A DNA stretch of 10,787 nucleotides from Escherichia coli. Lineage in GTDB: Bacteria > Pseudomonadota > Gammaproteobacteria > Enterobacterales > Enterobacteriaceae. Shown piece after piece: positions 5,971 through 9,447 of this stretch (its first letter is position 1; each line of letters opens with the position of its first letter). The notes beneath the pieces were generated by a model. The model searched no databases, was not told where the DNA came from, and saw only the letters and a program-made list of their open reading frames with translations. The translations under genes and the position numbers were made by a program. The stretch lies in the NCBI RefSeq assembly GCF_003334815.1, contig NZ_QOWO01000060.1; one strand, 5' to 3'.

Positions 5971-7120
5971 ACGTAAAAATTATGGAGCAACGTGATGGTA
6001 CGATTCATTCCATTCTTCGTTCTTTCTGAGCATTGCGTTCAGGATAGTCAGCAGCTTGCGTATACAGGTAACCAGCGCCACTTTTTTGGGTTTTCCTGCG
6101 GCAAGCAGTCGCATGTAAAACACCTTTATTACCGGGTTAAAGCGGGTTGCGACAAGCGCTGCCATGTACAGGGCTGTTCGCACACCAGCCCTGCCGCCAA
6201 AGATGGTTCGTCGCCCTCTCATCGTGCCCGAGTCCCGGTTTACTGGAACCATACCGACAAGCGCACTGATTTCACGCCTGGAGAGGTTACCCTGTTCGGG
6301 TACTTCCGCCAGCAGCGCAGCAGCCGTCATGGTGCCAACACCTTTAATACTGCTCAGTCGCTTAGCAAGCTCTTTGAAGTGGCTATGGATATGGCTGTTC
6401 ATGTCAGCATCTAGTCGCGCAAGCTCGTCTTCCAGTGCTTTGATGATGATATTAATGCTTTTCCTGTTCTATGGATGAGCAGGGTGCAACCGGTTTCTCT
6501 CGGCAACCAGCATCGTAATCAACTGCCGCCTACGAACTACCATTGCAGTGAGAACCTGACATTCAGTATCCGGCAGTGCTCTGATAAAGCGTTCCCGCTC
6601 CGGATGCCGGTTGAGAACCTCAGCCATCTGGGAAAGCACTCTGGCATCAATACTATCAGTTTTCGCGAGGTATCCCATGGCGCGGGCAAAGTCACGAGCT
6701 TGTCTGGGGTTAACCACGGCAAGCTCAAAACCTTCTGCCTGAAGCGCACAGACTATGGCGGTTTCAAGTCCTCCAGTGGCTTTCATTAAAACCAGCGCAA
6801 TGGCGTACATTCTCAACTCAGCAATGATGGCGTCAAAGCCATCACTGTCATTGCCGACAGAAAATTGTTCAATAGCGCTGCTGGCGGCAATATCCAGTAT
6901 CGCTTTCGAAACATCGATATCCACACAAAGTGAACCTGGCTGACTCATGATTACCCATCCTTGCAAATGCGTTATGGCGTACTGACAACTGTTCGGGTTT
7001 CAGATGAGTGGCTCAGTGTATGCGCCATTCGCTGAGCTACGGGCTATGAACCCCTTGAGGGATCGGGCTGCATACACCTTGCCAAATCTAATCACAGTTA
7101 TTTTAACCAATTGTCAAGAT
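5971..7120 (-). mobile_element. IS110-family insertion sequence (boundaries approximate)
   Basis: Carries an IS110-family transposase reading frame at 5980..6948, about 170 bp of non-coding sequence upstream of it and almost none downstream, consistent with IS110-subgroup architecture. This family has no terminal inverted repeats, so the ends cannot be fixed from sequence alone. Confidence 0.55.
5980..6948 (-). pseudogene. IS110-family transposase (DEDD-type), interrupted by a single in-frame TAG
   Basis: N-terminal part MSQPGSLCVDIDVSKAILDIA...NRLHPAHP and C-terminal part ...[49 protein letters not shown]... are typical IS110-family halves. They lie in the same frame (6966 minus 6402 is 564, which is 3 x 188), separated only by TAG at 6471..6469. 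ATG at 6948; TAA at 5982..5980. Confidence 0.8.
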
Positions 7121-7133
7121 ACAAGGAGGAGAT

Positions 7134-7544
7134 ATGCGAATTCTGAACTGCTATATGGCGAATGACAGCAAAGGCCATTTTGTTACGGCGAAAGAAGCCG
7201 CGAAGCACAACCGACAGGACGTTTTGTGCTGTGTGTCCTGTGGTTGTCCGTTAACACTTAAGCGGGGAAATGACGGACAACCGCCGTGGTTTGAACATGA
7301 CCAGATGACTGTTGCTGCGAAAATCCTGCTGCGATGCACCTGGCTTGACCCGGCAGAGAAAGAGGCCCGTCGTTTGCATCTGCAGGGCATGACGGTTCCG
7401 GATTATACGGTGAAGGTGAGAAAGTGGTTTTGTGTGATGTGTGACGAAGATTATGAGGGGGAAAAGTGCTGCCCGCGTTGTGGTACTGGGGTATACAGCA
7501 GGGAGGGGGGGCTGCAGGAAGGCAACTGGAAGGATAGGAACTGA
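7134..7544 (+). CDS. Cys-rich small protein (putative zinc ribbon), paralog 2 of 2
   Basis: 136-aa ORF starting at ATG 7134 with AGGAGG 4 nt upstream. Same architecture as paralog 1: CCVSCGCPL, PPWFEHD, WFCVMCDEDYEGEKCCPRCGTG. Confidence 0.6.
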   Translation: MRILNCYMANDSKGHFVTAKEAAKHNRQDVLCCVSCGCPLTLKRGNDGQPPWFEHDQMTVAAKILLRCTWLDPAEKEARRLHLQGMTVPDYTVKVRKWFCVMCDEDYEGEKCCPRCGTGVYSREGGLQEGNWKDRN

Positions 7545-7747
7545 GCGGTTCAGTCGCGGAAATCAGTTGCAGAGCTTTAATGATATCTCCGGGAGTGCTG
7601 CGTTGGTAGGGGCATCCCGGGATAGAGAAATTTTAGCACTTTGCCCTGAATGATTGTAGACGCCCCGAGTACTCGTACCGGTCTGAGTTATTACAGTTAG
7701 ATATTCACTTTTTCTCCCGCATACTTCACATCTGTCAACGACGGATG

Positions 7748-7788
7748 AAAAGTGGTTCTTCCGCAACCTGGGTGGAAGAAAATGGATG
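7748..7788. repeat. ISL3 left terminal inverted repeat
   Basis: See the element entry; sequence read directly. Confidence 0.75.
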
Positions 7789-7827
7789 AAACTTTCTGGC
7801 GAACAAGGATCTAAGCTGTTTTAAGTT

Positions 7828-9447
7828 ATGGGCAACCCAATGCACTCTCTTAAGACACTTCTACAGTTACCTTGAGGATGGCGATGCAGTCGACAAATTA
7901 TTAGCTCTGACGGTATAACCCTCCATCTCCACGGAAAACGCAAAACAGCACAATGTCCTGAATGCTTTAAGCGTAGCGACTCTGTTCATAGTTGTTGTCG
8001 GCGCCGGATACAGCATCTACCCTGATCAGGACAGACGCTATGGCTTGTATTTTCCGTCCGCCACTGGTACTGCCGTAACCCAGCTTGTTCACGTAAAATT
8101 TTTGCCGAGTCGCTTGCTCCCTTCGCCGGTTCACACCAACAGTCTTCACAGGCGTTACAAAATTTACAACGTCAACTGGGATTAATAGCTGGAGGTGAGG
8201 CTGGAAAACGGGCTGCAACGGCAGCGGGTCTCCGTTGCAGTGCTGATACTCTTCTTCGCAGGGTTATCAATACCCCGGAGACGAAACAGTCAGGCGCGCC
8301 TCATGTCGGTATTGATGAGTGGGCGTGGCATCGGGGCCACTGCTGCGGTATGTTAATAGTCAATCTTGATACTCACCGTCCCCTCGTCCTGCTTCCCGGC
8401 CGTGATCAGCGTACGCTGGCGACCTGGTTCAGAAAATATCCGGAAATACAGGTTGTCTCGCGTGATCGCAGTGGAGTCTATGCGACAGCAGCACGTGAAG
8501 GTGCACCTCAGGCCAGACAGGTGGCCGATCGATGGCACCTGCTAAAAAATATTGGTGATGAGCCTGAACGAATGATGTACAGACATATGCCTCTGATACG
8601 TCTTGTTGTCAGAGAGTTATCACTGAAGAAATCACCTGAGCCAGAAATATCTGTGCCTGTAGCATCGCTCCGTCGTCCGGAACGCCTTAAACAGCAAACC
8701 CGCAAAAAACGGCATCAGCATTGGACAGAGGTTATGGCCCTGCATAACAAGGGATGTAGTTTCAGGGAAATATCCCGTATTACAGGCCTGTCGCGAGTGA
8801 CAGTCAGTCGCTGGGTGCGTTCAGGAACATTCCCTGAAATGTCAACCCGGCCTCCAAAGCGAGGGCTTCTGGACCCATGGAGGGAGTGGTTAAAAGAGCA
8901 ACGAGAAAGTGGTAATTATAATGCCAGCCGGATATGGCGGGAAATGGTGGCCCAGGGGGGGACAGGCAGTGAAACCATCGTCAGGGATACTGTTGCCAAA
9001 TGGCGTAAAGGCTGGAACCCACCGGTTACTACTGCCGCAAGACTTCCTTCAGTGTCCCGGGTAAGCCGCTGGTTGATGCCCTGGAGAATAATCAGGGGCG
9101 AAGAAAATTATGCATCCCGATTTATTAGTCTGATGTGTGAAAAAGAACCGGAGTTGAAAATAGCACAGCAACTGGTACTCGAGTTCTACCGTATTCTGAA
9201 AACCTAAAATAAATCACAGCTAAGCAGCTGGTTCACTCGAGTCCACGAAAGCGGCTCAGCAGAACTTCGGTGCGTAGCTGCGGGGATGGAAGCTGATGCT
9301 GCGGCTATATGTGAGGCAATCAGCAGTCGCTGGAGTAATGGTGTTGTCGAAGGTCATGTAAATCGCCTGAAGGTGCTGATACGCCAGATGTATGGTCGAG
9401 CCGGATTTGAACTACTTAGGCGGAGGGTAATGAGTCCACTGGCATGA
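7828..9447 (+). pseudogene. ISL3-family transposase, one continuous frame broken by three in-frame stops (TGA 7873, TGA 8023, TAA 9205)
   Basis: A single frame from ATG 7828 reads MGNPMHSLKTLLQLP*GWRCSRQIISSDGITLHLHGKRKTAQCPECFKRSDSVHSCCRRRIQHLP*SGQTLWLVFSVRHWYCRNPACSRKIFAE...GIDEWAWHRGH...IQVVSRDRSGVYATAAREGAPQARQVADRWHLLKN...FYRILKT*NKSQ...WSNGVVEGHVNRLKVLIRQMYGRAGFELLRRRVMSPLA. The CPxC...HS...LP...C.N..C...F.E N-terminus, GIDE/VVSRD DDE core and SNGxVEG C-terminus are the ISL3 hallmarks as I recall them. The ORF track's ATG 8350 is internal. Confidence 0.8.

Follow-up and report, generated by a model that had tools for sequence, protein, structure and literature searches.

In-frame stops in two insertion sequences of an Escherichia coli CP4-44-like island are consistent with ordinary pseudogene decay

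The window analyzed here is a stretch of 10,787 nucleotides from the Escherichia coli chromosome (assembly GCF_003334815.1, contig NZ_QOWO01000060.1) that belongs to a CP4-44-like island adjoining cobU-cobS-cobT (cobUST). It contains two insertion sequences (IS), one of the IS110 family and the other an ISEc38-like member of the ISL3 family. The transposase open reading frame (ORF) is interrupted once in IS110 and three times in ISL3, in each case by a nonsense codon and never by a frameshift. An earlier note, made from the sequence alone, had regarded this absence of insertions and deletions (indels) as a noticeable bias. From the comparisons presented below, the two elements are very probably old, immobile IS copies within a degraded island that are decaying neutrally towards loss. 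This is ordinary pseudogene decay, and the Prokaryotic Genome Annotation Pipeline (PGAP) already flags both transposase coding sequences as pseudogenes with an 'internal stop' and, in other RefSeq genomes, flags relatives as 'frameshifted' as well. The window shares these flags and a neutral substitution spectrum with other pseudogenes of this kind, and differs in nothing material save the absence of a frameshift.

Translation of both frames confirmed the four in-frame stops at the positions given in the earlier note (Table 1), and its family assignments were borne out by Pfam matches on the window's own translations. The IS110 translation contains both domains of its family, the N-terminal, RuvC-like DEDD_Tnp_IS110 (PF01548, residues 12-155, E = 3e-17) and the C-terminal Transposase_20 (PF02371, residues 196-278, E = 1e-18). 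The ISL3 translation matches Zn_ribbon_ISL3 (PF14690, residues 40-84) and DDE_Tnp_ISL3 (PF01610, residues 160-296 and 413-533). The latter match is split by an insert of about 115 amino acids (residues 296-413, approximately 8713-9066 of the window) that holds a helix-turn-helix with weak matches to HTH_38, HTH_7 and HTH_17. Database searches returned intact proteins of 539 and 322 amino acids with identities of up to 99%. When aligned with intact homologs of the same length, neither the ISL3 protein (539 columns) nor the IS110 protein (322 columns) has a single gap column. At the DNA level, sampled E. coli loci are labeled L001 onwards, and one of them, L005 (GCA_000397645.1), lacks IS110 at this locus while retaining an intact ISL3 ORF. 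The window aligns to L005 ungapped across 3587 bp with 47 mismatches. The absence of indels relative to intact homologs was therefore correctly described, as was the standard genetic code of this E. coli sequence. The true start of the ISL3 coding sequence is the ATG at 7828, four codons upstream of the start that the earlier note implied.

The stops differ both in the base changes that produced them and in their age. The ancestral codons of ISL3 were read from the comparison with L005. For codon 160 of IS110, the ancestral codon is CAG (Gln), which is found in all of the homologs with 81-85% identity and in an E. coli plasmid copy with 74% identity. The four changes are TGC to TGA twice, each a C-to-A transversion, CAA to TAA, and CAG to TAG. 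The C-to-T origin suggested earlier thus holds for ISL3 codon 460 and IS110 codon 160 and fails for the two TGA codons, neither of which arose from CGA. The age of each stop was assessed by counting exact matches to a 61-mer centered on it in 5426 complete E. coli genomes. The 61-mer with TAA at ISL3 codon 460 (TAA460) is present in 2346 of 3050 records and that with TGA at codon 66 (TGA66) in 344 of 3279. The 61-mer with TGA at codon 16 (TGA16) was found in none of 3188 records, nearly all of which are one base off. The ISL3 stops are therefore nested: TAA460 is old, TGA66 intermediate and TGA16 private. They do not represent a burst. The TAG-bearing 61-mer of IS110 is matched exactly in 469 of 666 carrier genomes, each with one chromosomal copy. 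With TAA460 and the IS110 TAG both old and widespread, the proposal of a recent inactivation does not stand. TAA460 removes the C-terminal 80 residues of the ISL3 transposase, including the invariant E508/N512/K515 motif. From what is known of the DDE family, this stop alone should abolish catalysis, in which case later changes to ISL3 would be neutral.

Publications consulted on E. coli/Shigella pseudogenes supplied definitions and no nonsense:frameshift ratio that could be used, and orthologs of the same locus served as the control for this ratio instead. Events were counted in 20 orthologous ISL3 copies and two ISEc38 copies by comparison with the intact ORF. The orthologs present five independent nonsense events (codons 16, 66, 88, 113 and 460) and three to four independent frameshifting indels (poly-G +1, poly-G +2, a 4-bp deletion and a 1-bp deletion), giving a ratio of approximately 1:1 among those sampled. 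The two ISEc38 copies located elsewhere add a TAG at codon 208 and a 1-bp insertion. The nearest relatives of the window are the copies of the clade carrying TGA66, and PGAP labels these 'frameshifted; internal stop'. A bias against indels is not supported by these counts. At in-locus rates, the probability of observing no indel given 25 substitutions is about 0.3-0.4, and that of at least three stops among 25 substitutions is about 0.08-0.19. Both are unremarkable, and the lack of frameshifts in the window is a chance outcome of sampling.

The ISL3 and IS110 ORFs evolve neutrally, since the polymorphism spectrum of the first matches random mutation and the second has nine nonsynonymous and two synonymous sites in addition to the stop/sense site discussed below. 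Among 12 ISL3 orthologs, 85 segregating sites were identified, of which 55 are nonsynonymous (65%), 25 synonymous (29%) and five nonsense (5.9%). The corresponding predictions for the intact ISL3 ORF under random mutation are 68-72%, 24-28% and 4.4%. These values bear on another proposal of the earlier note, namely that active transposases were selected against and the DNA was kept for another role. Such selection would favor inactivation by substitution with the length or frame of the DNA preserved, the sequence serving for example as a promoter, as an RNA or as the gene of a shortened regulatory protein. The window is indeed indel-free across both elements, and more than 2700 complete E. coli genomes keep this ISL3 copy at the locus, followed in each by the same ggt fragment. 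Nevertheless, the composition of the polymorphism is neutral, the Rfam search of the window yielded no RNA family, and relatives carry frameshifts, the 4-bp deletion, truncations (L016, H104/H105) or, in strain 52F4, which matches window positions 1-3600 at 100%, a deletion of the entire IS110/ISL3 block. Retention for another role is thus highly improbable. Domestication or purifying selection was likewise rejected, as the polymorphism spectrum fits random mutation.

The absence of a frameshift in the window hinges on the length of one homopolymer. A slippage-prone poly-G run in the ISL3 ORF is hypervariable, with six residues (G6) in the intact L005 ORF, G7 in the window and in alleles of the type found in sequence type 131 (ST131), and G8 or G9 elsewhere. 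All five of the closest relatives sampled from the TGA66 clade (L001, L017, L018, L006 and L008) have a frameshifted G8 or G9 run, and the window lacks the frameshift because its run is G7. A 65-mer haplotype with G7 is present exactly in 841 of 1696 records; another 524 match at 95-99%, a band into which the +1 and +2 G variants fall. The nearest complete genome, that of LR-21-1 (L001), differs from the window at three places in 7.2 kb: position 7875, where the change makes TGA16, the length of the poly-G run, and position 10632.

Homopolymer length is a classic class of sequencing error. If base 7875, the G7 length, or both were base-calling errors, the true sequence would look like that of its relatives, with two ISL3 stops and a poly-G frameshift. 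Two of the three differences from LR-21-1 are precisely these features, TGA16 has no counterpart in any matching record, and the run is longer in every clade relative sampled. However, a private single nucleotide change and a slippage event are also to be expected if a neutrally evolving pseudogene has genuinely mutated in recent times; if real, TGA16 and G7 could represent a point mutation and a slippage that restored the frame. G7 is also a common allele in other clades, and the other three stops are confirmed by independent assemblies numbering from hundreds to thousands. An artefact affecting part of the pattern is considered unlikely, but TGA16 and G7 are two of the features that form the pattern, and both should be supported by reads before inferences are drawn from them.

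The two TGA codons of ISL3 both replace invariant Cys codons and E. coli has selenocysteine insertion machinery. In principle, the corresponding UGA codons might be decoded as selenocysteine or undergo read-through such that a functional transposase is made. The 50 nucleotides after each TGA were searched for a hairpin of the selenocysteine insertion sequence (SECIS) type, and the folding was no better than that of shuffled sequence (z = +0.71 and +0.76). The sequence downstream of the TGA codons is unchanged from orthologs that bear TGC. Selenocysteine insertion and read-through were rejected given the absence of a downstream hairpin, the private state of TGA16, and the presence in the same ORF of TAA460 and, among relatives, of frameshifts. 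Recoding is left with next to no probability.

Codon 160 of IS110 provides a case of a stop that appears to have changed back to a sense codon. TAG occupies this codon in deep as well as shallow lineages (L015, L016, L017, L001 and the window), and TTG (Leu) is present in L006, L007, L008 and L018, some of which differ from the window by that base alone. Since TAG spans the deep and shallow lineages and TTG is restricted to a subset that differs by as little as one base, TTG is most parsimoniously derived from TAG as a stop-to-sense pseudo-reversion. PGAP calls the TTG copies an intact 'IS110 family RNA-guided transposase', and they are still single-copy. A Tyr variant of the same codon was found in metagenome data (P0121). 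With TTG in up to about 30% of IS110 carriers, the one metagenomic Tyr variant, and an open ISL3 ORF in strains like L005, it may be asked if selection, or active copies acting as donors in gene conversion, repeatedly turn stops in fixed IS copies into sense codons, periodically resurrecting the bridge-RNA recombinase or the ISL3 transposase. This departure from pure drift is judged to be quite improbable. As a side note, the TAG to TTG change provides an IS110-family recombinase with a naturally occurring Q160L substitution.

In terms of neutral decay, the following course of events may be proposed. The stops, ancestral codons, population frequencies, neutral spectrum and indels in relatives are direct observations; the order of events and the catalytic death of each element have been deduced. 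Both IS copies would have been inherited vertically, with recombination between alleles, and the stops would have arisen successively as ordinary point mutations at G:C base pairs. The IS110 TAG may date from soon after the insertion of that element. In ISL3, TAA460 would have been the first stop, and with the C-terminal catalytic region gone, later changes would have come at no cost. TGA66 would have followed in one clade and TGA16 last, in this strain alone. Throughout, frameshifts at the locus would have been about as frequent as nonsense mutations, and the window would simply happen to have none.

Several points weigh against this interpretation. Among its nearest relatives the window alone has TGA16 and the G7 run; each is a private single-base state that could be either a sequencing error or a real mutation. 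The event counts come from a sample of about 20 loci instead of a full phylogeny. Cys codons account for only about 7% of the possible nonsense paths, yet two of the three ISL3 stops lie on them, with a post hoc probability of about 0.01. Lastly, some strains (L005) still have an intact ISL3 ORF at the orthologous site, a possible hint of purifying selection. This hint is tempered by the mosaic nature of L005. The ISL3 alleles at the locus are recombinant mosaics, and in L005 the 5' part resembles the ST131-type allele while the 3' third (nt ~1134-1620) appears ancestral or ISEc38-like, by which L005 escapes TAA460. Since L005 joins parts of different alleles, recombination shuffles the stops between ISL3 alleles.

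The IS110 element has the features of DEDD, bridge-RNA-guided elements such as ISKpn42-like elements and IS621. Besides the two Pfam domains, its 322-amino acid ORF shares 81-85% identity with intact IS110 transposases of enterobacteria, a 5' non-coding leader of about 175 nucleotides is present, and terminal inverted repeats are lacking. Compared to the empty site of L005, the junction presents a 2-bp AG overlap. The insertion lies at the exact overlap of two tandem Zn_ribbon_11/DUF7828 paralogs and has changed the C-terminus of the upstream gene. Sites without IS110 are present in many strains (L005, L009-L014), and copies at the same locus (L001, L006-L008, L015-L018) are 99.5-100% identical. 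It differs from these elements in that its ORF is broken by the TAG at codon 160 and it is immobile in every carrier; it shows no sign of mobility because it is single-copy and chromosomal in all 666 carriers among complete E. coli genomes. The leader occupies the place where a bridge RNA would be encoded, a role that is presumed here from general knowledge of the IS110 family. Its folding is somewhat stronger than that of shuffled sequence (z = -2.4), and it is a candidate bridge or guide RNA region. A scan of the whole window against Rfam 15, including this leader, returned no family matches.

The ISL3 element strongly resembles ISEc38. The protein encoded by its 539-codon ORF is 93-95% identical to proteins that bear the NCBI name 'ISL3-like element ISEc38 family transposase' and 93-99% identical to ISEc38-family proteins overall, and the nucleotide identity is approximately 95% over the length of the element. 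Imperfect terminal inverted repeats with 43-nt arms (79% complementary, ~7732-7774 and 9455-9497) delimit the same ends in L002, an ISEc38 copy. In contrast to ISEc38, the window copy is diverged, fixed at one locus, interrupted by three nonsense codons and not active; ISEc38 copies sampled elsewhere are often pseudogenes themselves. A search for an 8-bp target-site duplication around the element found no match between the flanks (ttcacatc and gtatggcc). The right flank consists of a short piece of ggt and then a truncated php gene. The missing target duplication, together with this right flank, suggests that an IS-mediated rearrangement followed the insertion.

The features of the window are collected in Table 1. 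The island as a whole is decaying by both nonsense and frameshift routes. Within the first 3287 nucleotides, the truncated Ag43/Cah autotransporter is a 547-amino acid ORF that covers positions 50-568 of a 948-position profile. As a further observation on the neighboring genes, a DMT/YdcZ transporter gene past the right end of the window is marked 'internal stop' in L011, L013, L014, L015 and L021, and the zinc-ribbon and php genes near the locus are marked 'frameshifted' in other strains.

Table 1. Coordinates of the two insertion sequences, their stops and neighboring genes in the window.
Feature	Position	Strand	Comment
IS110-family element, 1165 bp	5959..7123	-	Between two tandem zinc-ribbon genes; empty site L005 aligns to 4824-5958 and 7124-10710
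IS110 DEDD transposase pseudogene, 322 codons, one internal stop	5980..6948	-	From translation, Pfam and homolog alignment
TAG, IS110 codon 160	6469..6471 (read 6471..6469)	-	Sole stop in the 322-codon frame
IS110 5' non-coding end, 175 nt	6949..7123	-	Position where IS110-family bridge RNAs are encoded
ISL3-family ISEc38-like element, 1764 bp	7733..9496	+	From inverted-repeat scan (imperfect terminal repeats 7733-7774 and 9455-9496); L002 ISEc38 copy from another context matches 7733-9496
ISL3 transposase pseudogene, 539 codons, three internal stops	7828..9447	+	From translation; intact 539-aa ortholog at same locus in L005
TGA, ISL3 codon 16	7873..7875	+	From TGC, conserved Cys; private to this sequence
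TGA, ISL3 codon 66	8023..8025	+	From TGC, conserved Cys; common to one clade
Poly-G run in ISL3 ORF	8955-8961	+	G7 here, in frame
TAA, ISL3 codon 460	9205..9207	+	From CAA (Gln); old, widespread
CP4-44-like island genes	1-3287		JAB/YeeS-like gene, antirestriction gene, DUF932 fragment, truncated Ag43/Cah autotransporter
Upstream zinc-ribbon gene (Zn_ribbon_11/DUF7828)	5578..5970	+	130 aa here, 133 aa at empty site
Downstream zinc-ribbon paralog	7134..7544	+	136 aa, intact

From this study, a pattern of stops without frameshifts in one sequence provides no evidence for a special inactivation mechanism, for recoding or for domestication of either transposase. It matters little in itself, being what neutral decay is expected to give in a single sample.

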